Made by a program: the position numbers and the translations under genes
Shown: positions 3,715-41,817 of the stretch, piece after piece
Layout: the number at the start of each line of letters is the position of its first letter
How positions within the stretch are numbered: the first letter of the stretch is position 1
From: Candidatus Omnitrophota bacterium
GTDB lineage: Bacteria > Omnitrophota > Gorgyraeia > Gygaellales > Profunditerraquicolaceae
Length of the DNA stretch: 64,000 nucleotides
Direction: 5' to 3'
Assembly (NCBI GenBank): GCA_963805065.1
Contig: CAWDSS010000010.1
Coordinates: 600,359-664,358, forward strand
The notes under the pieces: model-generated
Database searches by the model: none
What the model was told of the DNA's origin: nothing
What the model saw: only the letters and a program-made list of their open reading frames with translations

Positions 3715-3717
3715 AAT

Positions 3718-4584: not shown

Positions 4585-5472
4585 TTACTGCTCAGACCAG
4601 GAAAGAATTTTATTTTCTTTCGGGCTTATCACTACTTGATAACGAACGCCGTCTTTGCCCTTAACCTGAGGGATAATATTAAGCCTTAAGTAGTCTGATT
4701 TTACGCTTAAAACACTCATCGCCGATAACAAATCCTGCTCCTGCCTTAAGCTTACGTCGGAGAAGTTCTTTAAATCCGCTAATATTGTTGCCTGGCTGGT
4801 AAATGCGCCGTCTTCTTTCCCCTGCTCAGCTTTATATTCCCGGCGAAAGCGCATAATTATATCTATAAGCTCATCATCCAGGCCCAACGCAGATAACACT
4901 TCGCTTGAGGCAGTATTAATATTTATTTTTCCCAGTCCATAGACGGTAATTGAATCTTTGATTTGATTGTATATGTCTTTGGTCATCCCCTCTACAAGCA
5001 AGAGCTCTTCTTTGCGTTTAAATGGCCGGCGAGTTGATTCTGTAATATTTTTTGCCAGGTCCTCATTTATACCTACCAGCCTTTTTAATACTTCACTAGA
5101 AACCAGGTTAATATTTATCAGCGCCCCTTCATCGACAAATTTCTCTTTTTCCCCGGCTGTTTTTCTTTCGCTAAGGTAATACTTGTAGCCTGGCTTATCA
5201 CAGAGCATTACTATATTTGCCTGCGTAAGCTCGTTATAAGAATCGTAATCCGGGGTAGCATCTTTAATTCTATCTTCAAATACGCGTAACATTGCTGCCT
5301 TTGCCATGGGTAGCGACATGGACTGGCGGATAAAAAAACTTGAGAATTTTATTTCCTGAAACACAAACCCTGCCAGAGCCAGACTTAAAATAGACAAAAT
5401 CGCAAGCGCCCAAAGGCTAACAATAAGAATGCTTCCCTGTTTATGCTGTGGGAATTGTAATAACCGTAACAT
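4585..5472 (-). CDS. gspK: GspK-like minor pseudopilin
   Basis: N-terminal QGSILIVSLWALAILSILSLA hydrophobic segment and the NINTASSEVLSALGL helix-hairpin-helix-like motif, both typical of T2SS protein K. It is the last gene of the pseudopilin run. Confidence 0.65.
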   Translation of the reverse strand: MLRLLQFPQHKQGSILIVSLWALAILSILSLALAGFVFQEIKFSSFFIRQSMSLPMAKAAMLRVFEDRIKDATPDYDSYNELTQANIVMLCDKPGYKYYLSERKTAGEKEKFVDEGALININLVSSEVLKRLVGINEDLAKNITESTRRPFKRKEELLLVEGMTKDIYNQIKDSITVYGLGKININTASSEVLSALGLDDELIDIIMRFRREYKAEQGKEDGAFTSQATILADLKNFSDVSLRQEQDLLSAMSVLSVKSDYLRLNIIPQVKGKDGVRYQVVISPKENKILSWSEQ

Positions 5473-6067
5473 AAGACTTTTCTTTTTGGGTTACATTAAC
5501 CTTGACTGCCAAGGGTAAAGTTGGTTGCTGTTGCCAATCTTTTTTCCAAACATATGCTTTTTGCTGAAGGTCATAAATTAGATATGCAAAACTAAAGTTA
5601 TCTAATCCTTCGGCAAAGGAAGAAAATTGCGGCTCTAATTGCAATTTACCCTTAGCTAAAATATCCGCCAATTTATCCTGGCTTCGATAAAGAGCCTTTT
5701 TATCAGCATCATACGAATAAATGACCCGGTAGATTTCAGAGTCAATTACCGAAGCAAGCTGCAGCTTAATGCCCGTGCCGCTAAAGGCAACATCATTAAA
5801 AAGAAATGCCTGCCTTAATTCCCGGTTTAGTTTTTCCATTTTTAATATAAACGCGCGCTGTTGTGCCTCGGAGTCTTTGGCGCGCCGCCATACGGTCATG
5901 CCGGAATTGAAAGTCGCATAAATAGCCACAGTTACGACAGCGAATATCGTAACTGTGATAAGCAGTTCGAGAAGCGTAAATGACCTCTGGGTTCTGGGTT
6001 CTGGGTTCTCGGTTCTCGGCAAGAACCTAGAACCTAAAACCCAAAACCTAGTTCTATTTTTGTTCAT
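5441..6067 (-). CDS. Minor pseudopilin (GspJ-like) with prepilin-type N-terminal motif
   Basis: FTLLELLITVTIFAVV class III signal motif. Start set at ATG 6067 (MNKNRTRF...). The leader is encoded by heptamer palindrome 5986-6051; an alternative TTG start sits in the palindrome loop. Confidence 0.55.
   Translation of the reverse strand: MNKNRTRFWVLGSRFLPRTENPEPRTQRSFTLLELLITVTIFAVVTVAIYATFNSGMTVWRRAKDSEAQQRAFILKMEKLNRELRQAFLFNDVAFSGTGIKLQLASVIDSEIYRVIYSYDADKKALYRSQDKLADILAKGKLQLEPQFSSFAEGLDNFSFAYLIYDLQQKAYVWKKDWQQQPTLPLAVKVNVTQKEKSYVTVITIPTA
5986..6051. repeat. Heptamer palindrome (GGGTTCT)n-loop-(AGAACCT)n
   Basis: tctgggttctgggttctgggttctcggttctcgg-caa-gaacctagaacctaaaacccaaaacctag; lies within the 5' coding end of pseudopilin 5441-6067. 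Confidence 0.9.
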
Positions 6068-6554
6068 TTTGTTTTTCTTCCTGTTTCCTTGGCAAATACG
6101 TCGAAACCCAAGCATCTTTAGTTCGTCCTGCCTCCGTCCAATCTACCCTAATACAAACTTCCACTAATTTTTCAGTTAAATAATCCGGGCTGGATACTTC
6201 TTTTACTTCGCTTAGCCAGTTAAAATTTCTTGGGCCAATTTTGCGGGTTCCCGAATCAGATTCTAACCCGGGAGTTAAACCTTTTCTTTCGTATGAAACC
6301 AACTCCAGCTCAGCCAGTTTGTCTCTAGCAAGCTGTGTCGCGCTAATATAATTTTGGCTTGCGTTTAGAGCGCCTGCAGAAATTATGTAAGACTGGCTGA
6401 CTATAACCAGCCCAAAGCCCAGTATGGCTACGCTTATCATTAGTTCAATAAGCGTAAATGACCTCTGGGTTTTGGGTTCTAGGTTTTGGGTTCTGGGCAA
6501 GAACCTAGAACCTAAAACCCAGAACCTAATATTATTCCCAGTTCGTAATATCAT
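6054..6554 (-). CDS. Minor pseudopilin (GspI/H-like) with prepilin-type N-terminal motif
   Basis: FTLIELMISVAILGFGLV motif. The leader MILRTGNNIRFWVLGSRFLPRTQNLEPKTQRS is encoded by heptamer palindrome 6464-6528. Confidence 0.55.
   Translation of the reverse strand: MILRTGNNIRFWVLGSRFLPRTQNLEPKTQRSFTLIELMISVAILGFGLVIVSQSYIISAGALNASQNYISATQLARDKLAELELVSYERKGLTPGLESDSGTRKIGPRNFNWLSEVKEVSSPDYLTEKLVEVCIRVDWTEAGRTKDAWVSTYLPRKQEEKQNEQK
6464..6528. repeat. Heptamer palindrome
   Basis: tctgggttttgggttctaggttttgggttctggg-caa-gaacctagaacctaaaacccagaaccta; lies within the 5' coding end of pseudopilin 6054-6554. Confidence 0.9.
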
Positions 6555-6930
6555 CAGCGGTGCCTGGCTGGCCGTCTTTTCCTACGCTGGAAAGATCGTA
6601 TCCATTTTGATTGTGCTCTCCGGGGAATTTATACAGATAGGCCTTGCCCCAAGGATCAAGCGGTTTTTTCTTTAGATATGGCCCCCGCCAGTTGTCTGCT
6701 GCAGCAGGCTTTGTAGTCAAATAGTCCAGGCTATCGGGAAAAGTCCCCATATCCATTTCATAAAGATCCAAAGCCAGTGCAATGCTTGAGCTGATGTCCG
6801 ACTTTGCAGCCTGAATCCTGGCTTGCTCGGAACGGCCGGCTAGCCTCGGCATAACCATAGCTGACAAAATACCGATAATGATTACTACTAACATCAGTTC
6901 GATTAATGTAAAGCCTCTTTTTGTTTTCAT
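6532..6930 (-). CDS. gspG: Major pseudopilin GspG-like
   Basis: MKTKRGFTLIELMLVVIIIGILSAMVMP plus C-terminal WRGPYL...DPWGKAYLY...GKDGQPGTADDI, a classic GspG pattern. Start trimmed to ATG 6930, preceded by ggagg. Confidence 0.85.
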   Translation of the reverse strand: MKTKRGFTLIELMLVVIIIGILSAMVMPRLAGRSEQARIQAAKSDISSSIALALDLYEMDMGTFPDSLDYLTTKPAAADNWRGPYLKKKPLDPWGKAYLYKFPGEHNQNGYDLSSVGKDGQPGTADDITNWE

Positions 6931-7003
6931 GGAATCCTCCCTGTTAATGTCAAATACCAAAGCACAAAATCCAAAATAAATTAAAATTTCAAAATCTAAA
7001 AAT

Positions 7004-7655: not shown

Positions 7656-7695
7656 AAAGGTCGACTATTTTACTTTTGGCTTTTAACTTTTTACT

Positions 7696-9096
7696 TTATT
7701 TTATGCCTATCTCAAAATCCACTATTTCTTTTTCTTTTACTTTGCGCCGGCGCATGTACTTGGCCTGGGAGTCCTTAAAAATGCTGGAATTATTCAGCGC
7801 ATTTACAAAGCTGGAGATATCGGGCATCTGTTGTGCATAACCGCGGATACTGAAGTTTTTCTGCCATTCCCAGGTAAAATTTGTCAGTGTAATATTATCG
7901 GGGCAAAGCCGCGTTAATTCATAAATGTAGGTAGCTACCGAATCCTTTGCTCCGTAATACTGTTTCACGATTGTTATCTTTTGCGCAACGTCATATAAGG
8001 CGCCTGTGTCTTTCTTTAATTGGGTGATCCTCTTTTCCAGCCCCTCTCGGTATGACTGCAGTTGATTTATCCTCACCAAAGCAAGCAGGCCTAATATAAT
8101 AAAAACATAAGTTATGCACGCTCCCATTGTAAGTATTTGCTGCATTTTGAGTTTTATCTCTTTCTTAATCTGCGCCTCCGGCAGCGTAAAATTAATATCC
8201 TCTTTTCTCCTCTGGTAACTAAACCCTAATACGGAGGCAAAGGACACGCCTTCTGCGTTCCTGACGGGGAATTTATCCAGTTCGCTGCATCTTGTAAACT
8301 CAAACTTCAGATTAAAATCTTTTTTCAGCCAATTTTCTATCGTAGATTCTAATTCCCGGGGGGCTCCGGTTATAAAAAGGCGGCTAGGCTTTGTATTGGG
8401 GATTTCGTTATTCAACACTACCAACGCCTGTTTTAATTCGGCACAGCATTTCTCTCTTTCTGTCTCCATTCTGAGCTGCTCGCAGCCTTGCGATATTATA
8501 ACAGTGGATCTGATATTATGATTATTCACCAATACGAGATCGCTAAAATTATAATCGATGTCAAACACAAGGAACGCCCCGTGCAAAAGCGATTTATCTT
8601 TTATGGCCTCATTAATATAATGGACTGTGCCTTGCGAACTCATCAGCATTGATTCAGGTAATATGTTTAGGGGGGTGAATGCGTTAAAAATGTGCCGCAG
8701 CATTTCGCGGTGTGCCACTGCCAAAAGAATATGGCTGTTACTTAAACCGTCAAACCCCAGGTTCTGGTGGCTCCAGATAATTTCCTCTTTTGGATAGGGG
8801 ACTTGCCTTATGACATGTAACCCCAGCATTGATTCGATTTCCGCAGGATCCCTCGACGGCAAATCCAGCTCTCTAACGGTGATTTTATTGCGGCTGACCA
8901 CAACCAAAACCTCTAAGCCCTTTTTTTGCCCTATCTGCTCAAAAATGTTCTTTAGGGAATTGGCAAGGTTATAATTATCTAACCCCGCGGGCTCAAGAAT
9001 TATCTTATCTACTGCGTTATGCGCAATGCCTACAGACGAAGAACATACGGCCTTAAGCCAACGCTCGGAAAACTCTATTACTACTTTTTTCTTCAT
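7696..9096 (-). CDS. PilM-PilN fusion / GspL-like assembly protein
   Basis: 466 aa: an N-terminal ~320-aa cytoplasmic actin-like region (PilM-like start MKKKVVIEFSERWLKAV), one TM helix (ILTMGACITYVFIILGLLALV) and a ~120-aa periplasmic tail. Located directly downstream of gspF. Confidence 0.5.
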   Translation of the reverse strand: MKKKVVIEFSERWLKAVCSSSVGIAHNAVDKIILEPAGLDNYNLANSLKNIFEQIGQKKGLEVLVVVSRNKITVRELDLPSRDPAEIESMLGLHVIRQVPYPKEEIIWSHQNLGFDGLSNSHILLAVAHREMLRHIFNAFTPLNILPESMLMSSQGTVHYINEAIKDKSLLHGAFLVFDIDYNFSDLVLVNNHNIRSTVIISQGCEQLRMETEREKCCAELKQALVVLNNEIPNTKPSRLFITGAPRELESTIENWLKKDFNLKFEFTRCSELDKFPVRNAEGVSFASVLGFSYQRRKEDINFTLPEAQIKKEIKLKMQQILTMGACITYVFIILGLLALVRINQLQSYREGLEKRITQLKKDTGALYDVAQKITIVKQYYGAKDSVATYIYELTRLCPDNITLTNFTWEWQKNFSIRGYAQQMPDISSFVNALNNSSIFKDSQAKYMRRRKVKEKEIVDFEIGIK

Positions 9097-12042: not shown

Positions 12043-12062
12043 ATTTTGCAGAATGAACCTTA

Positions 12063-12095
12063 GTTTTGCCTTTTTACTTTTGCGTTTTGAGTTTT
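12063..12095. repeat. Second heptamer family
   Basis: gttttgcctttttacttttgcgttttgag. Together with the preceding cagaatgaaccttag it duplicates the 7075-7122 segment. Confidence 0.8.
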
Positions 12096-12101
12096 TCAAG
12101 T

Positions 12102-13493
<1,392 letters not shown>

Positions 13494-14336
13494 TTAGTGT
13501 CTACCTAATAGCCTTGACGCAGAAATCTCGCGAATCGTCTTATCAGAAAGGCCATGCAGGTACTTAAAATATTCCAGCTCCAAATGCTGGTTAATGCGTT
13601 TTAATTCCTGGAGGCTTGCCTCCAAATGCATGATGCGCGCGGCGAACTCCGCTAATTTACTGGACCAGAAAATCTGATAAAGCCTAAACCCCAACCACAG
13701 CTTGGCCCAGCCTTCAATGACCAGGCTTCGGCTTGGCTCAATAATAATATCTTCCTTTTTAACATCTGGATTTAGCGACGGGGGCGGCAAAGGCAACAGG
13801 GTTTCCGATTCAATCTGCTGAAGGGCAATATTCACGAACCTGGGATAAATTATCTGGATTTTACCGATTTCGCCTTTCCTGTAACGCTTAAAGCAATAGT
13901 CTCTTAACGGCTCCACGTGTTTGAATTCTAATTTTTCACTCGGCGAGGAAAAGGGAGTAAAATCCATCCCTACTTCTTCCAGGTACTCTGCTCCCTGGCG
14001 GCCTAAAACAATTATTTCATTTTCCCCCGATCTTATTTCCGAGAGCCTGTTAACTAATAGCACGTTTAACTCTCCTAAGAAGCCTTCATCGGAACTTACC
14101 AGGATAATAGCGGACGACGACGATTCAGGGCGCGGGCTGAAAAAGATACTGTTTGTAGCCAGCCCGGAAATCAAATTAATCCCTTCTTCCAGGGAGGGCA
14201 AAAAATCCCTTCTGGGCTCCTGGCGGGTGCGGAACTGGTTAAACTGCAAAGTTGCCGCCATCTTCATTACTTCTATGAGTTCATCCAGGTTTTTATTGAA
14301 TTTGAGATTCTCTTTTAATTTCGCAGCCGGTATCAT
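13494..14336 (-). CDS. atpG: F1 ATP synthase gamma subunit
   Basis: 280 aa between alpha and beta. N-terminal helix LIEVMKMAATLQFNQ and C-terminal helix ...TIREISASRL match the gamma pattern. Confidence 0.75.
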   Translation of the reverse strand: MIPAAKLKENLKFNKNLDELIEVMKMAATLQFNQFRTRQEPRRDFLPSLEEGINLISGLATNSIFFSPRPESSSSAIILVSSDEGFLGELNVLLVNRLSEIRSGENEIIVLGRQGAEYLEEVGMDFTPFSSPSEKLEFKHVEPLRDYCFKRYRKGEIGKIQIIYPRFVNIALQQIESETLLPLPPPSLNPDVKKEDIIIEPSRSLVIEGWAKLWLGFRLYQIFWSSKLAEFAARIMHLEASLQELKRINQHLELEYFKYLHGLSDKTIREISASRLLGRH

Positions 14337-14338
14337 TC

Positions 14339-15811
14339 CTACCCTACTTCAATTGTCCTAAAGAACTCCTGGATCGACTTATCCAGCCTTTCCTTTATCT
14401 GTTCGGTTAAATCGCCGTATTTGTCCAATTCATCGACGATACTGGCATTGTGTTTTAACAAGAATGTGAAAAACTCCTGCTTGAATTTCTTCACCTGCTC
14501 AATACTTATTGCCTCTAAGATCTTTTTATCAAAGGTATAGAACAGGACTATTTCTTCTGCCAGAGAAAGCGGGGCATTGTTTTCCTGCGTAAGAAGCTCA
14601 TACAGCGCCCTTCCTCGCTGCAATTGCGCTGTTGCCTCGGCAGATAACTTTGTACGCAGGCGTGTCAATCTCTGCAAAGACCGGTAATGCACGTATTCAT
14701 AACGTAAGCCCCTGCTTAAACTACGCATTGCAGGAGACTGCACCTTGCTTCCAATACGGGAAACTGAAAGCTCAAGGTCTATTGCCGGCTTAAACCCTTC
14801 CTGGAATAAACTCGTATTAAGATAAATCTGGCCGTCTGTCATGGAAACAAGATTAGACGGGATGTATCCGGTGATGTCACCTTGCAAGGTTTCGCACATC
14901 GGCAAAAATGTCATTGTCCCGCCGCCAAATTCCTGCCTTAAGAATCCGGCGCGCTCCATAAGCTGTGAATGCAGGAAAAATATATCTCCGGGGTATGCCT
15001 CTCTTCCCGGAGCCCGCTCCAGGAGTAAAGACATTTGGCGGTAAATCCAGGCGTGCTTGGTAAGGTCGTCAAATATTACTAATACGTCTTTGCCCTTATG
15101 CATAAAATATTCGCCCAGCGTAGCAGCAGTATAAGGACAGACGTACTGCTCGGCCGTAGATGAGCCTGCCGGAGCACATATTCCTATTGTATATTCCATG
15201 GCCTGCTTCTGGGCAACGGTCTGCATAATTTTTTTAAACGCAGCGTAATTGCCGCCAATCCAGCAGTAAATACAAATTACGCCTTTGCCTTTCTGATTAA
15301 TAATCGTATCTAAGGCTATTGAGGTCTTACCTATCTGGCGGTCTCCCACAATTAACTCGCGTTGGCCCTTACCGATAGGAATAAGCAGGTCAATAATTTT
15401 AATTCCCGTCATCAGCGCCTTATTTATAGGCTCGCGTTCCATGACACCTGCTGCCTCGCGAAAAACCGGGTTAAAATCCGAAGAGGTTATTTCTCCCTTG
15501 TCATCAAAAGGCCTGGCTAAACTATCGACAATCCTTCCGATAAAGTTTTCTCCAACAGGAATATATAATGGCCTGCCTTGGCTAGAAACAGTATCACCGA
15601 CTTTTACGCTGTACTCATCGCCAAAAACAATCCCGTAGACGCAGGAAGGATTAAACTCAATAACCATGCCTTTAATACGGCTGCCAGAAGCATTTTCGAA
15701 TTCTATAACCTGCCCGTAGATACAGTTAGGCAAGCCGCTTATCTTAATGATGCCCTGCCTGACTTCTTCTACTTTGCCTATTTCTTTTATTTCTATGGTA
15801 GGAATATGCAT
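14339..15811 (-). CDS. atpA: F1 ATP synthase alpha subunit
   Basis: P-loop GDRQIGKTSIALDTIINQ, DDLTKHA, REAYPGDIFFLHSQLMERA, SITDGQI-like SMTDGQIYL. Confidence 0.92.
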   Translation of the reverse strand: MHIPTIEIKEIGKVEEVRQGIIKISGLPNCIYGQVIEFENASGSRIKGMVIEFNPSCVYGIVFGDEYSVKVGDTVSSQGRPLYIPVGENFIGRIVDSLARPFDDKGEITSSDFNPVFREAAGVMEREPINKALMTGIKIIDLLIPIGKGQRELIVGDRQIGKTSIALDTIINQKGKGVICIYCWIGGNYAAFKKIMQTVAQKQAMEYTIGICAPAGSSTAEQYVCPYTAATLGEYFMHKGKDVLVIFDDLTKHAWIYRQMSLLLERAPGREAYPGDIFFLHSQLMERAGFLRQEFGGGTMTFLPMCETLQGDITGYIPSNLVSMTDGQIYLNTSLFQEGFKPAIDLELSVSRIGSKVQSPAMRSLSRGLRYEYVHYRSLQRLTRLRTKLSAEATAQLQRGRALYELLTQENNAPLSLAEEIVLFYTFDKKILEAISIEQVKKFKQEFFTFLLKHNASIVDELDKYGDLTEQIKERLDKSIQEFFRTIEVG

Positions 15812-15835
15812 TGTTTAGCTGTCAGTCGTCAGAAG

Positions 15836-15898
15836 AAAAGGGGACGTTTCTATTTTTAACGTTTCCCAACTAGAAGAAAAATAGAAACGTCCCCTTTT
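15836..15898. repeat. REP doublet
   Basis: Same arms. The spacer aacgtttcccaactagaag is the reverse complement of the spacer at 16826, so the element is in the opposite orientation. It lies between the atpF(b) and atpA genes. Confidence 0.9.
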
Positions 15899-15950
15899 CT
15901 TTGGGTCCCCTTTTCTTTGGGTTTTGTCATTTGCCATTACACTTTACACA

Positions 15951-16673
15951 TTACACGGATTTACTGAGTTCGGGTATGACTCTGGATAATTTATTCCTGA
16001 GGGTTCCGTCGATAACCAACCCTCCTATTTCAACGGTCAGGCCGCTGATTAAATCTTTATCAACGGATTCTTCCAAGGCAATATTCCTCTCTAGTTTCTC
16101 AGCCAAAACTTTTTTCAAGGTTTCCCGTTGTTTATCTTGCAGGGCGTAGCTGGCAATAACCTTTACTTTATCGGAGGTGACTGTAAACTTTTCTTTGGGC
16201 AGTTTGCCGATTTCCTGGATAATCTCGGTAATAAATTGGTGCTGTAGTTCCTCTTTGTCTGTTTCGTTAAATGTCTCCTCGATCATCCTGATTGCCAGGT
16301 CCAGGCTTTGCTTTTGCATTTCCCGGTTGAGTTTTTCTTTCAGCTCCTTTACCTCTTCTTTTGCCTGGGCAATGATTTTCTCTGATTGCTGCCTAGCCTC
16401 CTCTTCCATAATCAGGCGGGTCTTAATTGCCTCCTGTTTTGCTTCCTCTATCAAAGCATCGGCTGCTTCTTTACCCTTGGCAATCTCTGCTTCTCTTTCT
16501 TCCTGAGCGCGCTTCAGCTCTTCGGTAAGCTGCGCTTCCTTGACTAAATTCTCCTCGTGGAGTGAGTTTAATCTGGTTAAGGCAACATTGAGGTTACGCG
16601 AAAAAATATAGCGTAAGACAAACAGAAGCACTATAAATGTGATTCCCTGAATTATGAGGAGTTGGATTAGCAT
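15951..16673 (-). CDS. atpF: ATP synthase b subunit fused to a delta(OSCP)-like C-terminal domain
   Basis: N-terminal TM helix plus a long charged helix (b-like). The C-terminal ~90 aa end in VDKDLISGLTVEIGGLVIDGTLRNKLSRV, which resembles the conserved C-terminus of delta/OSCP. No separate delta gene is present in the cluster. Confidence 0.7.
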   Translation of the reverse strand: MLIQLLIIQGITFIVLLFVLRYIFSRNLNVALTRLNSLHEENLVKEAQLTEELKRAQEEREAEIAKGKEAADALIEEAKQEAIKTRLIMEEEARQQSEKIIAQAKEEVKELKEKLNREMQKQSLDLAIRMIEETFNETDKEELQHQFITEIIQEIGKLPKEKFTVTSDKVKVIASYALQDKQRETLKKVLAEKLERNIALEESVDKDLISGLTVEIGGLVIDGTLRNKLSRVIPELSKSV

Positions 16674-16675
16674 TG

Positions 16676-16794
16676 TCTAGGTTCTAAGCTATGGCTTAGC
16701 CTTCTAAGGTTCTAGGCTATGGAATAGACTTCTGGGTTCTAGGTTATGGGTTCTGGGCTATGGGCAAAAACCTAGAACCTAAAACCTAGAACCT
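16676..16794. repeat. Heptamer/27-mer structured array abutting the atpF(b) start codon
   Basis: Contains the ~80-nt unit shared with 17144-17228 and 17472-17556, plus one extra ggttctaagctatggcttagccttct module. Confidence 0.9.
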
Positions 16795-16825
16795 ACTTCG
16801 TAAACAAATTGTATACTATCAGTAG

Positions 16826-16888
16826 AAAAGGGGACGTTTCTATTTTTCTTCTGGTTGGGAAACGTTAAAAATAGAAACGTCCCCTTTT
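16826..16888. repeat. REP doublet
   Basis: Same arms; spacer cttctggttgggaaacgtt; lies between the atpE(c) and atpF(b) genes. Confidence 0.9.
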
Positions 16889-16928
16889 CTTTGGGTGTTG
16901 TCATTTGTCATTACACTTTACACAATTA

Positions 16929-17141
16929 CTATTTCGTAAATAGATTGTACACAATTAACAACGCTAATACTGCGATTGCCTCGGCGAAAATAAAAGCCAA
17001 AATCATGGCTATGAATATCTTGGCAGATGCCGAAGGGTTGCGTGCCACGGACTTGACCGCCGAGAAACCGACCAAGGCAATTACAGCTGCCGGTCCTGCG
17101 GTGCTTAGGAACATGGTTATGATTAGAATTAAGTTCTGCAT
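16929..17141 (-). CDS. atpE: ATP synthase c subunit (proteolipid)
   Basis: 70-aa two-helix hairpin with loop ARNPSA (cf. ARQPE) and a carboxylate in FIFAEAIAVLALL. Confidence 0.8.
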   Translation of the reverse strand: MQNLILIITMFLSTAGPAAVIALVGFSAVKSVARNPSASAKIFIAMILAFIFAEAIAVLALLIVYNLFTK

Positions 17142-17143
17142 TG

Positions 17144-17228
17144 TCTAGGTTCTAGGCTATGGAATAGACTTCTGGGTTCTAGGTTATGGGTTCTGGGCTA
17201 TGTGCAAAAACCTAGAACCTAGAACCTA
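17144..17228. repeat. ~85-nt heptamer-based structured element filling the atpC-atpE spacer
   Basis: gtctaggttctaggctatggaatagacttctgggttctaggttatgggttctgggctatgtgcaaaaacctagaacctagaaccta. Confidence 0.9.
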
Positions 17229-17229
17229 A

Positions 17230-17469
17230 TTATGTTTCCACAAATATCTTTAATGCATTGCTCTTCATAAACGCAATGCCGTCTTTAATTAAAACCTGGT
17301 TCTGGGTTCTGGGTTCTGAGGAACACCTAATATTACCTTTTTTTAGCCTCATCAGGAATGGCTGATGAAAATCCAATACGCAAACTTCTCCGTCTTCAGT
17401 GGGTAAAGTCACCTGCCTTGCATTTCCTTCCCAGAGTACGCCTTTGGGTTCGAGTATACTTACCTGCAT
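17230..17469 (-). CDS. atpC: ATP synthase epsilon subunit, N-terminal beta-sandwich domain only
   Basis: 79 aa. LEPKGVLWEGNARQVTLPTEDGEVCVLDFHQPFLMRLKKGNIR aligns with the epsilon N-domain pattern (GE.g.L..H.P.l..L..G). It lacks the C-terminal helical hairpin. A heptamer repeat encodes SSEPRTQNQ. Confidence 0.65.
   Translation of the reverse strand: MQVSILEPKGVLWEGNARQVTLPTEDGEVCVLDFHQPFLMRLKKGNIRCSSEPRTQNQVLIKDGIAFMKSNALKIFVET
17296..17320. repeat. Direct heptamer run inside atpC
   Basis: ctggttctgggttctgggttctgag, read in-frame as SEPRTQNQ. Confidence 0.8.
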
Positions 17470-17471
17470 CG

Positions 17472-17556
17472 TCTAGGTTCTAGGCTATGGAATAGACTTC
17501 TGGGTTCTAGGTTATGGGTTCTGGGTTATGTGCAAGAACCTAAAACCTAGAACCTA
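17472..17556. repeat. ~85-nt heptamer-based structured element abutting the atpC start codon
   Basis: Near-identical to 17144-17228, with a few substitutions. Confidence 0.9.
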
Positions 17557-17571
17557 ATTCACTATAATTAT

Positions 17572-18453
17572 CTATTTTCTAGCTACACAATACTTATTCT
17601 TGCCTGTCCTCTTTGCCTCGTAAAGCGCTACGTCTGCCTTTTCAATAAGAGTAGTTATTTCCTGCGCATCTTCCGGGAATGTTGAGATGCCTATGCTTAA
17701 TGTCGCGGGTAGATACAGGGTTGCCTGCACGCGCAGCCTCTCGGCAACTATCTGAGCGCCCTTTTTATCCGTCTGGGGCAATATAACCACAAATTCCTCT
17801 CCTCCGTAACGGCAGACCATGTCCACTTCACGCATAGAAGCCTTCAAGAGCTTGGAGAGCTTACGTAATAATTCGTCTCCCGCGGGGTGCCCATTTGTAT
17901 CATTATAATTTTTAAAATTATCGATGTCAATCATTAACAAAGACAGGTTTGAGGCAAAGCGTTTTAACCTGGCAAATTCCATCAGCATTACCTCATTGAA
18001 ATACCTGCGGTTATAAAGCCCGGTGAGCCCGTCGATAACAGCAAGCTGCGCATAATAATCTTTTTCTTTGCCCGCTGACAACAGATAGAACCTTTCTACG
18101 GCATGCCCGACCTTAATCCTTATTTCAGAGGTATTAAAGGGCTTGGTAATATAAGCGTAGGCGCCTGCCTCCATCGCCTCTATCGCGGAATTGATGAATG
18201 AATACAGGGTTATGACTATTACATTTGTTGCCGGTGAAATTTTATGCGCCTGCCGGGTTAATTCCACACCGTTCATTTTTGCGGAGCGTACTTCCGTAAT
18301 GATTACCGCGAATTGGTTTTGCCGAAGCAACCCCAGGCCCTCTGCAGGATTGCCGGCTATCCAAACCTTGTAACCCACATCTTTAAGGGTCTTTTCCAAA
18401 ATCATGGCTGATTCCGGATTATCCGTAATCACTAATATATTTATCTCTGCCAT
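17572..18453 (-). CDS. Response regulator - diguanylate cyclase (REC + GGDEF)
   Basis: REC domain followed by LTGLYNRRYF, IDIDNFKNYNDTNGHPAGD and the canonical RYGGEEFVVIL signature. Confidence 0.88.
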   Translation of the reverse strand: MAEINILVITDNPESAMILEKTLKDVGYKVWIAGNPAEGLGLLRQNQFAVIITEVRSAKMNGVELTRQAHKISPATNVIVITLYSFINSAIEAMEAGAYAYITKPFNTSEIRIKVGHAVERFYLLSAGKEKDYYAQLAVIDGLTGLYNRRYFNEVMLMEFARLKRFASNLSLLMIDIDNFKNYNDTNGHPAGDELLRKLSKLLKASMREVDMVCRYGGEEFVVILPQTDKKGAQIVAERLRVQATLYLPATLSIGISTFPEDAQEITTLIEKADVALYEAKRTGKNKYCVARK

Positions 18454-19272: not shown

Positions 19273-19409
19273 TTAATGTCAAATGACAAAGCACAAATGA
19301 AGAAAAGGGGACGTTTCGAAGAAAAGGGGACGTTTCTATTTTTAACACCTCCGGTTTAGCAGAAAAATAGAAACGTCCCCTTTTCTTTGGATGTTGTCAT
19401 TTGTCATTA
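19273..19409. mobile_element. Short composite MITE-like element
   Basis: ttaatgtcaaatgacaaagcacaaa - REP doublet - ctttggatgttgtcatttgtcatta. The ends are inverted repeats of each other. Confidence 0.65.
19303..19384. repeat. REP doublet preceded by a partial duplicated half-arm
   Basis: gaagaaaaggggacgtttc is duplicated, followed by a full doublet at 19322-19384. Confidence 0.9.
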
Positions 19410-20175: not shown

Positions 20176-23100
20176 TTATTTGAACTCAAACCAAGTCTGC
20201 ACAACGGGTTTCTTGGCAACGTTCTCAACCATCTTGCTGTTTAAGTCCATTGCCGCCTTTAATTCCTCGGTCTTGTTCTTTAAGTAAACCATATCGTCTT
20301 TCTTTTCTTTGGCAACTTCATATAATTTCTTTAAATTGATGCCTCCCGCTCCGCTCATCTTATCTATCTGGGCGCTGATATCGTCCAATTGTTTGTACAC
20401 TGTCTCAACCTGAGTCAACACTCCCTGCGCCTGCTCCGCCTTCCCCGTAAGGCCCTGGCTAAGCTTTGTCAATGCATCGTCAACGAGGTTGAATTGCGAA
20501 TTGAGCGTATCGGCAACTGACTTCAATCCTGTGATGCCTGTGGTTGAGCCTAAAACCGCGGAAACCTGCCCAGCTACATCTGCAATATCAGTGTTGTAAA
20601 CAGTGATCACCTGAGCATCTACGGTGCCCTTAGTAGTCTCAGAACACACTACCGTAAAATCACCCGTGCCCCAACCCGCAAGGAATGTAACAGTGTAATC
20701 GTAAACTCCGCTTGTTCCGTTTTCTATCATACGCCCCTTGGAAATTTTTAACATGTTCTTGGGGTCATAAACATCGATAGTGGGGGAAAGGCCCGTGGTT
20801 GTGCGATAGGAAATTATAACTGCCTGGCCTGACTTTACCGCGGTATCGCGGTTAAGAATGCCCGACTGCACCTGCGGTTTAATCTCGGTGTTTAGTGTCC
20901 CGGTTATATTATTTTGCGCCGCAGTTATAGCGTTAGGAATAGCAGTATTTGTGGCAGTTAAAATCTGGGAAGTCTGTTGCGTTATGGCTGAAACCTGCGG
21001 CTGTATAGCGTTTACAACTGAATCCTGTATTGTTTTCTGAATGCTCTGAGTCTGGTTAGCTATGGCTGCAGTGGTAGTATTTATGGCATCGGTAGCTGTC
21101 TGTATCATCTGCGTCATTTGTTTTAATTGCTCGGATATGCTGATGTCGAATGTTGCGCCTGAGGTATAAGTGCTTCTAGTGCCGCTTGTGCCGCCGTAGC
21201 TAATGCTACAGTTTGCAAAATACGTTTTACCGGACTCAAGCCCGCCGGTAGTAGTGGCATTGGGCACCTGTATAAAATAACTGCCTGTCGTTGGATCTGC
21301 TGATGCAGCTGTTGCTGTCCATAACGTCGATGAGCCGTAAGACACCGCAACAGTAGCTGAGCCCAGCGCATTGATAGAGTCACTAACCACTAAATAGCCT
21401 TGTTTCTCAAGCCACAACCTTATCATCAACGTATTCGTGTCTTCATTGTAAGAAAAGCTGCTCTGGACCCTGTATTCCTTAGGGGTTGTTGACTCCATAA
21501 GCACATCTACCAACGCATCCTGACTTACTATCCTGTCGACATCGCTAGTATCATAGTATCCTGATTTCGACCAGATAGTTGTGTATGTGCCTTGAGGGTA
21601 ACGCCAGGTAAATGTAGTTGAGCCGGTCGCCACATCCAGCGCTCCCACTATAACATTCCAGTATGTTGAACCTCCTCCCGAAGAATCTACGCCTAATCCG
21701 GTGGTTAATAACGTCATGGTCTCATCATCCCTGATTCTCCAGGTGAGGGTGTAATAAGAAATCGTAAATGCAGGAGATACGGCAAATATTGTCGCATCTG
21801 ACGTTGAACTGACTCTTAGTTGGACATAATAATCTGCTGGCGGTTCAGCCGGCAGATTGGCGAAATTAGGATCGGGCACTGTCCAGGCATAGCCTGAGAT
21901 ATTGTTTGCATTAGGAACGTTAGTAAAGGAGTTAATAGTAGTCCAGCTAGCAAGAGGTAATGTCGACTGATCAGTGGCTGTCCTATACTCTAATTTCAGC
22001 GACGGAAATGCCCCTTTGTTATACCAAGTTATGGAATGAAGTGTATTTGCCTTCCAGTCTGTGGAATTTAAAAATTCCTCGCTGTTAACAGTTTCATCCC
22101 TGAAATCAAAACCACCGGTGATCCTAAACCATCCCGGACTCACCGCAGTAGCAAGTAAGTTACCATTGGAATCATATCCTCTTACCCGCATTTTCAAAGT
22201 AGATGTGGCAGTTGCATTGTCCGGCACTGTCCAGGTATAACTACCTGTATAGCTACCGCTATATGCATCAGCAGTATCGGATGTACCCTTAGGAATGTTG
22301 ACCGCAATAACTGTGGCGGTTTCAGTACCGTCTAAAGAGCCGTCTTGATCGGCATCATTCCAGTAATCAATTGCTACATGATCAATAGCCAAGCCGCGTA
22401 TTGTCCAGTTAATCGTCATGGGATCCTCAACCACGTAGGCAACGCCATTTGGCGGAGGGGTGAGGAACGTAGCTATCGTAGGAGCGGCAATGACTGTAAA
22501 GTTAGCAACTGATGCGCCGCTGGAATTAGGCCTTGAGCCATCCATGACTCTTAGGCGCTCATTAATTCCCTGAACAATAGCCGGGACAGTCCAAGTGTAG
22601 GTCCCGCTATTAGCCAGAGAGTTGGCAAAAGGAGCAGCATAGTTTTGGCCGCTGTTGGTAGAATATGCTATTTGTAGGGCATTGGCAGTTATGGAACCCT
22701 GGGTTGTCCAGGCAATAGGCGCTAAATCGCCCACAGCCCAAACTTCGCCGCCATTAGGACGAATCATGCTAACCGTGGGTATCTTGACAGTCCATTGCGC
22801 TGATACCTCTACCGGCGTTGCGCTATTTCCTGAGTCGGTAATCCTGACTCTGGCCGGCGAATCGCTGGTTATTGCAAAGGAGTTTGGTATTGCCCAGTTG
22901 TAGGAAGTTGCACCATGCATGGCTCCTGAGTAAATTTGCGAATAAGTTACGCCGTTGTCGTATGAATATTCCAAAAGAAGGTTATCGCTTACCAGGCCTT
23001 GCTTTGTCCAGCTAATAGTCTGGGTAGTTCCCATTATCCAGGCATCAGTTGTAGTCGGATGGTTTATGCTGGTAATCATGGGCGGAGGCAATACTGAGAA

Positions 23101-26100
23101 ATTAGCGTTGGAAACAGCCACTACGCTGGGATTCGCAGCATCGCTTATCCTTATCCTGGCAGTTGCGGTAACTGTTGCCGGAGAAAAGTTATAATACGCG
23201 CCGTTATTTGGCCAGTTGGACTCTATGGTTGCCCAGGTCTGATTAGTTGTATAATCCGGGCACCATTCAATCTTCACGTTACCCACTGTTCCTGTGTTTG
23301 TCCATTTAATCCCGCCTGTAGGATTTACCTGGTCGCTATATCCTAGATTATAAGTCTGGTATTGGGTGAGCTCTTCCCCGCCATTTGGCTGCAGTATCCC
23401 TATTGCAGGCAAGGCAATGATAAACGCCGACGGAGAAACCGAAACATTAGACAGGCCGTTTGGCTGGGAAACCCGCACCAGGCAAACCTGTTGATTGCCG
23501 ATAGAATAATCTGCCGGGATAGTCCAGCTGAAGCTTCCGGTATTTCCGACAATGCCGTCATTAAGCGTGTCATATGATTCAACTACGGTTGTCCAGGAAG
23601 TGCCGTAGTCAGTAGAATATTCCAATTTCACAGTAGCCATGGAAGCCGAGCCGGCTGTGGTTGTCCAGGTAATATTATGAGTAGTCCCGATAGTCCAGTT
23701 TTCACCTCCCACAGGAGAAATTAAGTTTAAGTTACCTTTGATATTAAATGTCCCGGAGGTTGCAGAAACAGTGAGATCATTAGCATCCTCTACTTGTATC
23801 TTGCAGTCGCTGGATATATTATCAGGCACTGTCCAGGTATAATTAGTTGCTGCATTGGCATTAGGAGTAACGCTCCAGTTCGCAGAAGCATTCAATACTG
23901 TCCAGGTGGGAGTGCCTGCGCTGGCATTGGTGGTATACAAAAGTTTTACACGCGTAATATTTCCCGTGGTTGTCCAGGTGATTACATTGCCTGTGCCTAC
24001 TGTCCAGCTTGCACCTAGAGCAGGCGGGTTAGGGGCGCTCACTGAGCCGTTTATCTGGAAGGTAGTAGTCGTGTCTTTATAAGAAGTGGAGTCTGTAGGA
24101 ACGCGCGTATCTATTATTCTTATCCTTAATGCAGTATTAATGTAGCTGGCATCAACAGTTGTAGGCACAGTCCAGACGCACGAACCTGAACTGTTACCAA
24201 TATTCCAGCTGCTTAAGTCAGCGGAGGAAATTGTTTGGGCGCTAGTAAGATTAACATCACCATCTCTATAATAAATCAGCTCCACATTAGCCTGGTCAAT
24301 TCTACCGGTAGTTGTCCAGTTAATTGTCAGGGCACTTCCTGCTGTTACTGCTGAGCCTGATAAATTCACGTTGTTAAACATGCCACAAATGGTAAAGGAA
24401 TTAGAAGTAGCAGCTGTTGTACTCTGCCTGTATGAATCAAACACCTTTATCTGGGATGCTCCCACATCATTGGGAACTGTCCAGGTAAAGGTGGATGTGC
24501 CATTGGAATTACTGGTTACTGAAGCACCGCCGGAAACATTTGTAAAACTACCGCCGCCTGACGTAGAATTATATTGTATGGTTGCCGCATAAGTAGCGCT
24601 GCCTTCGCCACCAGCTGTGCTCCAGGTAATTGCCGGGGTTTCAGTTACCACCTGATAGCCGGATAAATTACCCACAGTAATTGCCGGCTGTGTAATTGTC
24701 ACCTGGGGTAGCAATGTGTTTGTCATCTGGGTTTGCGTCCTAGTCATATCCCTGATTCTTAGTTGCGCGCTGGCATTAGTAGCTGCTGCGCCTAAGGCTG
24801 CTTGCGGCACTGTCCAGGAGAAACTTGCCGCACTAGGATACCCCCTTGGCTGGCCTGTGGCAATGGCTGTCCAGTTTGTGCCTGAGTTTGTAGAGTATTC
24901 AACATTAATATTGTCATTGGCATTGGCAGAGCCTGTCCAGGTAATGGTATTTCCCGCCGAACCTACCCGCCAGGATGGATTTGTCAAAGGAGAAGTAATG
25001 GTTAGGGTGGGCTGTGTGCCAATGTTAAAAGGATTTGAAGTAGACACTGCCACTGAAGGATAATTGGGATCATATATTCTCACTTGGGCAGTTGAGGTTA
25101 TTGCATTGGGTATAGTCCAGCTAAAGCTTCCGCTGCTTCCACTATTAGGCACCTGGGTGAAACTGTTTTGCGCGGTATGATTCATATCATACCAGTTGCT
25201 GCCGTCAGTGGATAATTGCAGATTTACTGGCGTAAATGTCCCGGCAGATGTCCAGGTAATATTCACTGAATCATTCACCACAACATTAGGTGGCTGAGCC
25301 AAAGTTATGCTACCGACTAAATTAAACTCACCTGAAGTCTTGGTAACAACAGTGGATCTAGAGGCATCTACAATCTTAACGGAAGTAGCGCCGATATCGT
25401 CGGGAATTGTCCAGGTCCAGCTTGTAGAACCGTTAGATGTATTAGCCAGATTAGTAGCAATTGTTGACCAGCTTGTGCCTGCCCCATAGCTAAGGTCGTA
25501 AGAGATATTTACTTGAGAAACCGCTCCGCTTGTCGACCAGGAAATTAGGTTAGCTGTAGCTACTGCCCAATTGTTGCTTGAGCTGGGGCTGTTAATTGTA
25601 ATCTGCGGGGCAATTGCCGTCCATGCGGCATCAGGGCTGACAACAGCCCCTAAAACTGCTGAGCCAGCACGCGAGGCATCGCTAACCTCGATTAGTCCTG
25701 CGCTAGTAGAATTTGTCCATAACAATGCTGCTTGGGGCACTGTCCAGAAATAAGTGCCGTTTTGTGCTGCGGTTGTAGTCAAAACTGTCCAGCCCATATC
25801 GCTAGTATTAGCCCTTAACTGTACATGGCCATCGTTTACACCTGCAGAGGCTGTCCAAGTAATGGAATAGCCTTTGCCCACCTGCCACTGCGGAGTTCCC
25901 GTCGGAGAAGTAATGGTAATGGAAGGCTGGGCTTTTACAGTATAAGCAGTAGAGGATTGGCCTAGGCTGGCCGAGCGGGATGAATCTGTATCTTCCACCT
26001 TAATTTGCGTCTGATTTATGCTCACGGCATCAGAAGGTATGGTCCAGTTAAAGGACGCAGTAGTATTTGCCAAAGCACCCGCTCCGCTACAGGCTGTCCA

Positions 26101-29100
26101 GGTTGTGCCATTATTATTTGTGTAAGAAACCTTAACGCTATTGCCGCTGCTTAAATTACCTACCCAGGTCCAGGAAATAGTTGCCGTGTCGCCAACATAC
26201 AGCGCATCTGCGCCTAAAGGCTGAGTTAGAGTAACATTGCTAATTTTGGGAACTGCTATGGTTATAGGTAATGTAACAGAAATATTCGTGGGGTCTGAGC
26301 CGTTAATTGCCGGGGCGCGCGTTCCGGTAATCCTTATTTGGCTTGCGCCAGATGAGATATACGCATCGTTGTTAGGAACAGTCCAGTAATAAGACTTGGT
26401 GAAGTTATTATCGTATGTGCCTGTGGTAAGAAGAGTAATATTGCTATCATTGGGATCAGTGTTATCAACAGTCCAGTTAGTATAACTTGCATTCGGCACT
26501 GTCCAGGTTGAGCCGTCAGGAGAATATTCTACTTTTACCTGCGTAATCTTACCCACGGTTGACCAGCTGATTTGATTATTGCTGGTGCCTAATGTCCAGG
26601 TAGTTCCGCTGGCTGGCAAAACAGTAGTAATATTCGCTGCTACGGTAAATGCAGATGATGTACCTGTAATAGTATTATCCGCATTGGAGATAATCTCTAT
26701 TTGGGCATTGGTTGAAGGAGCTAACCAGACGTTCCAGTTATAGGTCCCGCTATTGACACTTGAGTTTGCTAAATTGGGGGTTTGCGCTACGCCATTCTCA
26801 ACATACTTAATAGTTACAGCAGGGCTATTAGTTGGATTAGCCTTGTCTCCGATATTTGTCCAGGTAACGCTGGAATAGGTTTTGCCTCCGATTATCCTCA
26901 CGCCTGCAGCAGGCGTATCAACCCTAAACTTGGCATTGTTCAAAACCTTGAACACGTAAGATAAGGCTTGTATGCCTTGGGTCCTGGCAGGGGTAGAACC
27001 ATCCTCAATCCTTATCTGTCGGTTAGTGCCTACTGCCGCTGCAGGGATAGTCCAAACATAAGAGCCGTTGTCTGTTAGCCCTGCAACACTCCAAAGCACA
27101 GTTGCTCCGCTAATACAGTCAATTTCAATATTATTTCCTAAATTGCGTTCAGTCGTCCAGGTAATGCTACGCGCATCATTCTGCACTAAAGTGATTGCAC
27201 CATCACTATCTTCGGGCTCTGTTGACAGCGGGAATGGATTTAAGGTAATGGTCGGGTAGCGCACAGTAAAGGCATTCTTAGTATAATCATACACGGTGCT
27301 GGGGTTGTTAGAATCCTCGATCTTCAGGCCATAGCTAGTGGAAGAATATGCAGTAGGAATTACCCACGCATAGCTTCCGTTATTTGTCTCTTGTCCAATC
27401 AATGTCCAGGTAGCGCTAGTAGGAGTAGTTGGGTTAAAATCAGTAGCATAATATAGGTTTGCTGTGGCTGCCTTTGTTCCTACAGTAGTCCAGGTAATTG
27501 TCCAGGTATCTCCGGCAATCTGAGGAGAAGTTACTGCATTTAAGCTAATAGTGCTGGAGGGAATAGCGAAGGTATTTGAGACAGCTGTCCAATTAGTAGT
27601 AGGCGATATTTCTGAGCGGGAGGCGTAAGTGATTTTTATCTGGGCGTTGCTTGTGGCTGCGCTCAACTCCGGAATAGTCCAGGAGGTAGAATTTGCCTGT
27701 GTATCGCTAACTCCTGTTGGCTGAGGATTGGCTACTGTTCCTGTTCCAATGTTCGTCCAGGTTATTCCATCTGACGTATACCAGATAGTTATTTGATTGG
27801 CTGCTGCATAATCAGTAGTCCAGGCAATAGTCTGGTTGGTTCCCATTCTCCAGGAAGAACCGCTATTAGGCGATTGAATAGTAATTGAGGGGGGCGATAC
27901 AATCTTAAACGCGCTATTTGAGGTATCTGAAACTGTTGCGCCGTGCATACTTACCATTACCAAACAATTATTTGAAACGTCATTTGGTATAGAATACCAA
28001 TTGTAGGTCCCCAAATTAGCTTGTTGTGTATCAATGGTTGTCCAATCTGTGCCGCCATCACTAGAATAATACAAATCTATGGGTGTACTAGGAATTAAAC
28101 CTGTGGATGTCCAAGTGATATTTCTATTAGTATCTCCCACCACCCACATCTCTGAGCCGGTGTTAGGCGCAGTAACTCTAACTCCCTTAACTGTAAACCC
28201 TGCAGAGGTTGTCCAGGCTACATTATTAAGCGCGGTTATGCTTGTAGGCTGAAGTTTTATCTGGGCGCTATTAGTAGCTGTGGCAATCTGGTCTCCGGTA
28301 ATTGTCCAGGTATAACTTGTGCCGCTTTGGTTAGTGGCAATTGTCCAGCAAGTAGAATTATCTACAGTCCAGTTTGTGCCATTGGAAGAATACAAAATAT
28401 CTAACGGCTCATTAAAGCCGGCTGTTGACCAGGTAATATTTGAGTTTGTATTTGCCGTCCAGGATGTCCCTGCCGCAGGCGCAGTAATGCCTAAATTAGT
28501 GATTTTTATGGTCCATGTCTGCGTAGATGCCTGGCTATTATTTACATTATCCACAGCTGCCACTGACCAGGTATATATTCCCGGGTTTATGGTATTGGCA
28601 GTAATGGTAGAGCCTGTAGTCCAAGTAGCAGAGATATTGTCTTTATTAACACTCCCGTTTACATATAGTTGGTATTTACCTAAACCTGAGCCGGCATCTG
28701 AACTAGCAGACCAGCTAAAAGCAGGCGTGGTAGACGTAGTCCAGATAGAAGAAGTTGGGCTGGTTAAGCTAAAGCTGGCTGGCGCAGTAAGATCTTGAAT
28801 CACTGAAAAATTATTAGAGACTGTGGTTAAGCCTGCGTTATTGGTTACTGTAAAGCTAACCGAACCATTCTGAGTAGAATTTGCCGTCCAGGTATAGTTA
28901 GCAGTCCAGGTAGTGCCGCTACTCGTAACATCAAATGCAGTGTTTCCTGTACTGAACCCGGCCAAACCCGGAAAAGTAATCTTTTGAATTCCCGAGACTG
29001 GATCTTGTGCTGTAGCAATAATCCTGAATGAACCGGAAGTTCCGCCCGTATTATAATAAATCGGGCCGCTAGCACTCGATACGTATTGATAAATAGAGCT

Positions 29101-40154: not shown

Positions 40155-40233
40155 TTGGGTTCTGGGTTCTGGGTTCTGGGCTGTAAATATTGACCGGGTT
40201 TTAGCTAGAACCGAAAACCTAGAACCTAGAACC
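40155..40233. repeat. Heptamer palindrome upstream of the DUF2341/giant-gene operon
   Basis: ttgggttctgggttctgggttctggg-23 nt-ctagaaccgaaaacctagaacctagaacc. Confidence 0.9.
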
Positions 40234-41563: not shown

Positions 41564-41617
41564 TTGGGTTCTAGGTGTTCGACTCTCTATTATTACTTCT
41601 GGGTTCTGGGTTCTTGG
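41564..41617. repeat. Heptamer units (GGTTCT orientation) between the RR start and the four-helix-bundle gene end
   Basis: ttgggttctaggtgttc ... cttctgggttctgggttcttgg. Confidence 0.85.
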
Positions 41618-41805: not shown

Positions 41806-41817
41806 TTCTAATTATCC

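Follow-up and report, generated by a model that had tools for sequence, protein, structure and literature searches.

We examined a 64,000-nt stretch of contig CAWDSS010000010.1 from a Candidatus Omnitrophota bacterium (the window), in which near-identical units of about 85 nt stand directly before the ATG codons of three consecutive ATP-synthase genes, those for subunit epsilon, subunit c and a b-delta fusion. We hold it probable that these units belong to a lineage-specific heptamer satellite, prone to slippage and gene conversion, that survived only where one gene's stop codon and the next gene's start codon were kept. What we observe is a palindromic heptamer satellite with insertions and deletions of whole units, specific to this lineage, which occupies junctions that formerly read TAATG and also occurs as in-frame copies within genes. 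An earlier note on this DNA, made from the letters alone, had proposed a cis-acting RNA element of start codons. The units proved to be real, near-identical and strong hairpins placed exactly between stop and start; their specificity for starts and their role as a conserved regulator were not supported, because the element is absent in four relatives and in-frame copies lie within genes. A function dedicated to start codons has weak support. The three units are as follows:

17472–17556, minus strand: E5, an 85-nt unit between the stop of the GGDEF regulator (17572–17574) and the epsilon ATG (17467–17469)
17144–17228, minus strand: E4, an 85-nt unit in the spacer from the epsilon stop (17230–17232) to the c ATG (17139–17141)
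16676–16795, minus strand: E3, a 120-nt version with its end 2 nt short of the b-delta ATG (16671–16673)

On the coding (minus) strand, each copy ends in ...CCTAGAACCTAGAC(A/G)ATG, which confirms the placement before the three start codons that the earlier note had described. The copies differ by few substitutions, as it had also stated: E5 and E4 are identical at 82 of 85 positions (96.5%), and the distal part of E3 is separated from E4, over the stretch that they share, by one substitution and one whole 7-nt unit. The units do contain the two motifs reported there, a heptamer palindrome (GGTTCTAGGTT...AACCTAGAACC) as well as a mini-palindrome (CTATGGAATAG). Read in the direction of the genes, a unit consists of (TAGGTTC)3-4, a short loop, (GAACCYA)3, GAAGTCTATTCCATAGCC, TAGAACCTAGAC(A/G) and the ATG, i.e., an imperfect palindrome (TAGGTTC)n...(GAACCYA)n followed by a 28-nt module. 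E5 contains the heptamer palindrome, the 28-nt module and TAGAACCTAGACG immediately before the ATG; E3 has, relative to E4, one more heptamer and a second, diverged 28-nt module (28-nt period, 2.7 copies). The claim that the units fill the entire spacer holds for the epsilon-to-c junction (88 nt) and fails for the other two, where E5 occupies 85 of the 102 nt between the GGDEF gene and epsilon and E3 occupies 120 of the 255 nt between c and b.

RNA folding gave −28.3 kcal/mol (z −3.2) for E5, −27.1 kcal/mol (z −4.0) for E4 and −41.3 kcal/mol for E3, and the hairpins of the window's elements range from −27 to −41 kcal/mol with z of −3.2 to −7.5. The pattern of two heptamers occurs 64 times in the window, compared with 1.74 expected from shuffles, and Tandem Repeats Finder (TRF) reported a period of 7 at all array sites. 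(TAGGTTC)3 carries a TAG in each of three frames, and the heptamer variant that contains CTAG has a TAG in all three frames of both strands. No consistent target-site duplication or fixed ends were found; the most that came up was a repeated AA or AAT at a single junction. The starts of epsilon, c and b-delta are backed by N-termini common to relatives (MQVS, MQNL and MLIQ). We rejected the idea that the copies brought along the start codon and the codon after it (ATGCAG, ATGC), as relatives have identical native codons.

We compared the same junctions in four relatives with 62–81% protein identity:

L122 (b-delta 81% identical): GGDEF/epsilon, TAATG overlap; epsilon/c, TAATG overlap; c/b, 73 nt with only a GGGGACGTTTCTATTTTT palindrome
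L247 (b-delta 63% identical): GGDEF/epsilon, 9 nt; epsilon/c, 3 nt; c/b, 1 nt
L248 (b-delta 62% identical): GGDEF/epsilon, 10 nt; epsilon/c, overlap; c/b, overlap
L249 (b-delta 75% identical): c/b, TAATG overlap; the sequence covers the c/b junction only

The heptamer element was found neither at the three junctions of L122, L247 and L248 nor at the c/b junction of L249, and the density of arrays per 10 kb is 3.1 in the window versus 0–0.66 in the relatives' loci. A pattern for the 28-nt module had no exact match in JGI metagenomes. Because the orthologous junctions of the relatives are without the element, the atp copies are recent, lineage-specific insertions into coupled junctions that ancestrally overlapped or nearly did so. 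An insertion into a junction of zero length that both genes survive necessarily touches both the stop and the start.

The window contains about 13 arrays of the heptamer GGTTCTN/NAGAACC, 10 of them inverted pairs that form hairpins. Five arrays (E3, E4, E5, E9 and E10) end within 6 nt of a start, six or seven lie inside open reading frames (ORFs) and one (E8) is intergenic yet distant from a start; three of the ten palindromes are located within genes (E7, E1 and E2). The arrays beyond the three atp junctions are:

43207–43317, minus strand: E10, a composite with two 34-nt modules, from the secretin stop to the histidine-kinase ATG
41567–41847, minus strand: E9, a split palindrome with its 5′ arm at 41820–41847 and its 3′ arm at 41567–41621
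40158–40233, minus strand: E8, an intergenic heptamer palindrome; the next ATG (40042) is about 115 nt downstream
39416–39481, minus strand: E7, a complete 66-nt palindrome in frame (22 codons) in the DUF2341 domain of ORF 38681–40042
38691–38736, minus strand: E6, a one-directional (GAACCYA)n array that encodes the C-terminus of the DUF2341 protein
6468–6526, minus strand: E2, a 59-nt palindrome 5 nt past the GspG stop, in the leader of a GspI-like protein (ATG 6554)
5990–6048, minus strand: E1, a 59-nt palindrome 5 nt past the GspI-like stop, in the leader of a GspJ-like protein (ATG 6115)
17298–17318, minus strand: a 21-nt (3 × 7) stop-free array in the epsilon ORF that encodes EPRTQNQ
56470–56504, minus strand: a five-unit heptamer array in frame in a PyrK-like ORF (dihydroorotate dehydrogenase electron-transfer subunit)
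47323–47360: a variant heptamer array in a secretin signal peptide

The copies inside genes are tolerated as peptide. When the 22 amino acids encoded by E7 (−33.8 kcal/mol) were removed, the Pfam score of the DUF2341 domain rose from 47.0 to 55.6 bits and the profile match was extended from positions 27–83 to 2–83; BLASTP of this region against a giant protein encoded nearby aligned the C-terminal half only, and it was the Pfam deletion test that settled the insertion of E7. E1 (−38.8 kcal/mol, z −7.5) and E2 (−33.9 kcal/mol) lie downstream of the next gene's own ATG and, in frame, encode part of the leader peptides of two pseudopilins, with N_methyl matches at residues 28–52 (GspI-like) and 41–66 (GspJ-like) and the motifs QRS/FTLIEL and QRS/FTLLEL directly after the palindromes. 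These leaders comprise 45 aa (GspJ-like) and 33 aa (GspI-like), compared with 18–19 aa (19 aa for the GspI-like protein) in a relative of 64% identity, where the leader begins at the homologous ATG and a small GGTTT/CGGTTAT seed is already present. The EPRTQNQ loop of epsilon is hypervariable among relatives. E6 lies 27 nt upstream of the ATG of the giant gene, which has its own Shine-Dalgarno motif (AGAGGAG), and the intergenic E8 folds with −27.1 kcal/mol.

At the two remaining starts, the span given by the earlier note for E10 (−40.2 kcal/mol, z −5.9) was confirmed, with the secretin TAG inside the first heptamer and the last heptamer 3 nt before the histidine-kinase ATG. The 5′ arm of E9 holds the kinase stop and its 3′ arm ends 5 nt before the ATG of the NarL-type regulator at 41562; the short run that the earlier note had noticed at this start belongs, as 41567–41580, to the E9 3′ arm. 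The upstream stops of secretin and histidine kinase both fall in the first heptamer of the array that follows.

Some features near these arrays deserve mention in their own right. Between the arms of E9 lies a truncated 23S_rRNA_IVP/bAvd-like ORF (41593–41805, minus strand; 70 aa; Pfam 82.5 bits) that matches profile positions 1–59 of 106, with the kinase and the NarL-type regulator on either side; the arrangement recalls intervening-sequence (IVS) ORFs carried in RNase III-processed stems. In the pseudopilin region (5441–6960, minus strand), the −1 residue of the prepilin cleavage site is Ser in the GspI-like and GspJ-like proteins (QRS/FTL) and Gly, the usual residue, in GspG (KRG/FTLIEL); it is Ala or Ser in a relative. 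The giant ORF (20176–38664, minus strand; 6162 aa) contains a block of 174-nt tandem repeats at 34646–37557 (about 17 copies, with the Kelch-like motif YNGY(L/M)YIMGG) besides at least one segment of the DUF2341 type, and its clear AGAGGAG Shine-Dalgarno motif sets it apart from most window genes.

Beyond the window, we searched JGI metagenomes for the hairpin pattern GGTTCTRGGTT, 8–38 nt, AACCYAGAACC, which matched at least 120 contigs, with a GC content of 30 to 72% among the matches listed. In a rough analysis of these listed matches that considered ORFs of at least 200 aa, 41 of 112 elements had an ORF stop no more than 20 nt away, and 15 of 112 lay upstream of a possible ORF start by 20 nt or less; many are located between convergent ORFs. 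Judged from these counts, the family appears to be associated with gene ends and intergenic space and not with start codons. A genome scan for (GGTTYTN)4 yielded mostly one-directional arrays, from phyla as diverse as Bacteroidota, Verrucomicrobiota, Planctomycetota, Acidobacteriota, Chloroflexota, Cyanobacteria, Patescibacteria and Proteobacteria, among many others. A literature search on the heptamer strings returned nothing relevant, and no paper on the GGTTC-core unit was found.

We propose that the satellite spread and was resized by replication slippage, because whole-heptamer insertions and deletions separate the copies (the indel between E4 and E3 is exactly one 7-nt unit). Local copying or gene conversion would have contributed, since neighbouring junctions hold the most similar copies: E3, E4 and E5; E1 and E2; and the 3′ ends of E7 and E9. 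Purifying selection would then spare those copies that keep stop and start or that remain in frame. In a compact genome, harmless sites of this kind would be stop/start junctions that once read TAATG, variable protein loops, leader peptides and protein termini. As the CTAG variant has a TAG in all frames, it can stand only outside ORFs or as a supplier of the stop, intragenic arrays can only be of the CCAG type or suitably phased, and the two upstream stops mentioned above come from the first heptamer. Contact with the start codon would thus be an effect of survivorship and not of targeting: the comparison of junctions documents where the element is missing, and selection presumably did the sparing. 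Seven-nucleotide satellites with other units (TTGTCAT, AGTTTTG, TTTTACT and TTTTTCC) also stand in spacers of the window (16898–16912, 19394–19408, 12062–12095, 7663–7697 and 58704–58757), and period-7 repeats therefore seem to be a general habit of this genome.

For the transcript, the proposed history would mean that the formerly coupled block of GGDEF, epsilon, c and b genes is now split by stable stem-loops that start 1–17 nt past the upstream stop. The roughly 30 nt from stem-loop to AUG are A/C-rich, predicted to be weakly structured and, as at most window genes, without a Shine-Dalgarno motif (...ACAAUG), so that the downstream cistrons would probably initiate independently. The hairpins may act as REP-like barriers to 3′-to-5′ decay and are possible substrates of RNase III. 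A putative effect at the RNA level, be it as a processing site, as a decay barrier or by uncoupling, is plausible.

Several observations weigh against the satellite explanation. A further relative (L124/L125, 64% identity, gene order c-epsilon-b) has short heptamer runs directly before the epsilon and b ATGs, which read ...TAGAACCGATAACCGAAACAATG and ...CTAGAACCTAAATG; the arrangement of a heptamer before an ATG therefore arose more than once, and GAACCYA before the ATG could be favoured, beyond mere tolerance. The unpaired probability at the AUG itself (−4..+3) is low for c (0.26) and epsilon (0.15), in the lower fifth of the window genes. For E10, the predicted outer stem brings together the stop region and the 11 nt that directly precede the AUG, which in this model is the geometry expected of structure-mediated translational coupling. 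Three exact placements in consecutive junctions look orderly, and within the window a preference for insertion sites and selection are inseparable. Finally, we infer the copying mechanism without the help of a consistent target-site duplication or boundary motif, as none was found.

These observations bear on an alternative that we consider rather unlikely, namely that the units are an exapted cis-acting RNA module, in which hairpin and tail set the output of epsilon, c and b, be it as an insulator, as a translational coupler or as a site of processing. It would operate either by RNase III cleavage of the long stem or by a terminating ribosome that melts the stem and exposes the next start. 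Stable stems that begin 1–17 nt past the stop and a tail that ends 2 nt before the AUG would suit such a module, as would the outer stem by which E10 connects stop and start regions, the relatively paired AUG surroundings of c and epsilon and the recurrence of heptamer runs before the epsilon and b ATGs in a second lineage. So would the element-specific complementarity of the arms across the family, where arms folded at −48.5 kcal/mol in their native pairs and at −38.4 kcal/mol when swapped; the native pair was the more stable in 102 of 123 GGTTC-core palindromes (p = 4e-16). This complementarity is compatible with selection for pairing and also with a mechanism that generates palindromes. The 85-nt unit itself has only three or four near-identical copies in the window. 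Analogous TAACTGA repeats have been proposed as sites of a translational regulator (PMC4679880).

Against the module stand the same junctions without the element in four relatives, the same palindromes within coding sequences and the near-identity of adjacent copies, which fits recent copying better than a constraint of long standing. In the three atp copies, moreover, the stretch before the AUG is predicted to form weak local pairs or to pair with flanking sequence, and not with the 5′ arm. The mean unpaired probability between −18 and +12 is 0.40–0.71 at starts preceded by the element, with a window mean of 0.51 (standard deviation 0.12). We dropped sequestration or exposure of the start site as a candidate, because these values lie inside the range of the window and the pre-AUG region of the atp copies is unpaired with the 5′ arm. 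The module also has no Rfam match: only four tRNAs reach the gathering score in the window, and a search by E-value returned sub-threshold generic miRNA-hairpin matches only (at most 31 bits versus cut-offs of 58–249).

The earlier note had pointed out that none of the three spacers has a GGAGG-type Shine-Dalgarno motif. This is correct, yet the absence is not special, because only about 15 of 44 window starts carry any Shine-Dalgarno-like motif; about two thirds of the window genes are without one, and A-rich ...ACAATG contexts are common, including those of alpha and beta. The elements do not resemble intrinsic terminators, as CAGAAGUCUAUUCC or the AUG, and no U-run, comes after the 3′ arm and a terminator scan gave no site at the elements. 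In promoter and terminator scans of the window, sites were no more frequent than in shuffles, and none would account for the elements.

It is improbable that the units are a non-autonomous REP/REPIN- or MITE-like mobile element, moved by a transposase with a preference for stop/start junctions. The elements are palindromic, multi-copy and near-identical, the window contains a RAYT-like Y1 transposase gene (3791–4396), and in-frame palindromic insertions are known as Rickettsia palindromic elements. This gene, however, is flanked by palindromes of the GGGGACGTTTCTATTTTT family instead of heptamer arrays, the lengths of the elements differ by whole heptamers, and no consistent terminal motif or target duplication was found; one-directional arrays and the in-situ growth of the seed present in the relative's pseudopilin leader fit slippage better.

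The RAYT-like gene lies on the plus strand and scores 66.7 bits with Pfam Y1_Tnp and 62.3 bits, below the cut-off of 80, with the NCBIfam model for REP-associated tyrosine transposases. A single GGGGACGTTTCTATTTTT-family arm (3713–3742) and a full hairpin (4396–4450) flank it in the classic REP/RAYT arrangement. This second palindrome family, unrelated to the heptamer unit, is also represented in the c-to-b spacer:

16824–16900: a REP/REPIN-like, terminator-like palindrome with a 22-bp stem, of the AAAAGGGGACGTTTCTATTTTT...AAAAATAGAAACGTCCCCTTTT family

The same family occurs in the c-to-b spacer of L122 (1313–1378). It has 10–12 copies of about 77 nt each, with perfect 22-bp stems and loops of 15–25 nt in both orientations, at 2691, 7010, 11979, 15834, 16824, 19320, 45715, 49101, 53048 and 60326. 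Within the atp cluster, copies follow c, b-delta and beta. Their appearance is that of REPIN-like elements or of bidirectional terminators, and they may be more relevant to c-subunit stoichiometry than the heptamer element.

We give little credence to the notion that GGTTC-core palindromes constitute a cross-phylum class of self-propagating hairpins, co-opted here as portable modules of stop, hairpin and start without Shine-Dalgarno motif; if it were true, such modules would replace overlap-based coupling in operons such as atp and add peptide segments when in frame. A function at the DNA level and independent of transcription, with 7-bp-spaced GGTTC cores as protein sites or with cruciforms that affect recombination or supercoiling, is very unlikely: GGTTC-core arrays and palindromes do recur in many phyla at a GC content of 30 to 72% and REP/BIME elements bind IHF and gyrase, but no candidate protein is known, the arrays tolerate translation, and the modules are oriented in the direction of transcription at four of four loci, in a region where nearly all genes lie on one strand.

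The satellite explanation is in line with repeats described elsewhere. In marine Beggiatoaceae, 169 sets of TAACTGA heptamer repeats occur in one genome, mostly intergenic and facing the gene downstream; in the largest class the repeats end 1 nt short of the start, stops are present in three frames and upstream stops are overlapped (MacGregor 2015; PMC4679880). Few Shine-Dalgarno motifs accompany these repeats, a minority lies in frame in ORFs near protein termini, their distribution across phyla is patchy and their function is putative (PMC4679880). Judged by analogy, this set is the closest one described: both comprise tandem 7-nt units with stops in three frames, overlap with the upstream stop and mostly no Shine-Dalgarno motif. 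The unit here is GGTTCTN/NAGAACC, however, the arrays are mostly inverted and form 25–30-bp hairpins whereas one inverted case was reported there, four window loci add a 28- or 34-nt module that is not heptameric, and the host is an Omnitrophota bacterium. Over-representation of heptameric repeats is known for bacteria, and Xanthomonas has been described as having some in inverted arrangement (PMC4692102). The cyanobacterial STRR sequences and the G-rich heptamers of Xanthomonas and Nostoc (PMC4692102) share with our element the intergenic over-representation, a length that varies between close relatives and occasional inverted arrangements with stem-loop potential; they differ in their unit sequences, and no G-quadruplex potential exists here.

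The REP/BIME/REPIN elements of Proteobacteria are likewise short, imperfect, multi-copy palindromes in operon spacers near stops, transcribed as stem-loops able to shield upstream mRNA from 3′ exonucleases, and their positions are poorly conserved. Unlike our element, REPs are not tandem heptamers, have a defined 5′ tetranucleotide and flank a RAYT gene, whereas the RAYT-like gene here is flanked by the other palindrome family. Rickettsia palindromic elements are selfish palindromes in frame in protein genes, tolerated in surface or variable regions like E7, E1 and E2; they are longer (about 100–150 bp), are not built from heptamers and, to our knowledge, have not been reported as stop-to-start spacers. 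The window element is best filed as a variant of known bacterial repeats, with the GGTTC-core unit, the palindromic arrays and the added module as its distinguishing traits.

The F-type ATP-synthase cluster is encoded on the minus strand, with the following Pfam assignments:

17572–18453, minus strand: GGDEF response regulator
17230–17469, minus strand: epsilon, N-terminal domain only (79 aa)
16929–17141, minus strand: c subunit
15951–16673, minus strand: b-delta fusion
14339–15811, minus strand: alpha
13494–14336, minus strand: gamma
12102–13490, minus strand: beta

The cluster (12102–17469) is without a gene for the a subunit, the C-terminal helical domain is missing from epsilon, and b and delta are fused. 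Several Omnitrophota relatives share the order GGDEF-epsilon-c-b/delta-alpha-gamma-beta, followed by type II secretion system (T2SS)/pilus genes, and in one relative c and epsilon are swapped. A database protein identical to the b-delta of the window (P0001) is 226 aa long, and its alignment covers 94% of the 240-aa query; the length of 240 aa is counted from the conserved ATG right after the repeat, on which relatives agree (MLIQLLIIQ). From this alignment, the shorter start of P0001 looks like a start-site mis-call beside the repeat. The 226 versus 240 aa of this protein and the pseudopilin starts, which are located upstream of the hairpins, call for caution in annotation.

For Omnitrophota, a phylum that has received little study, the window provides an example of a 7-nt satellite that splits overlapping stop/start junctions in an essential operon and yet leaves that operon intact, while the same repeat is also taken up in frame by protein loops and leader peptides. 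That an element touches a start codon is, as a caution, not by itself evidence of regulation. Should the hairpins prove to act on mRNA processing or on coupling, the contrast between presence here and absence in the relative of 81% identity would constitute a natural experiment.

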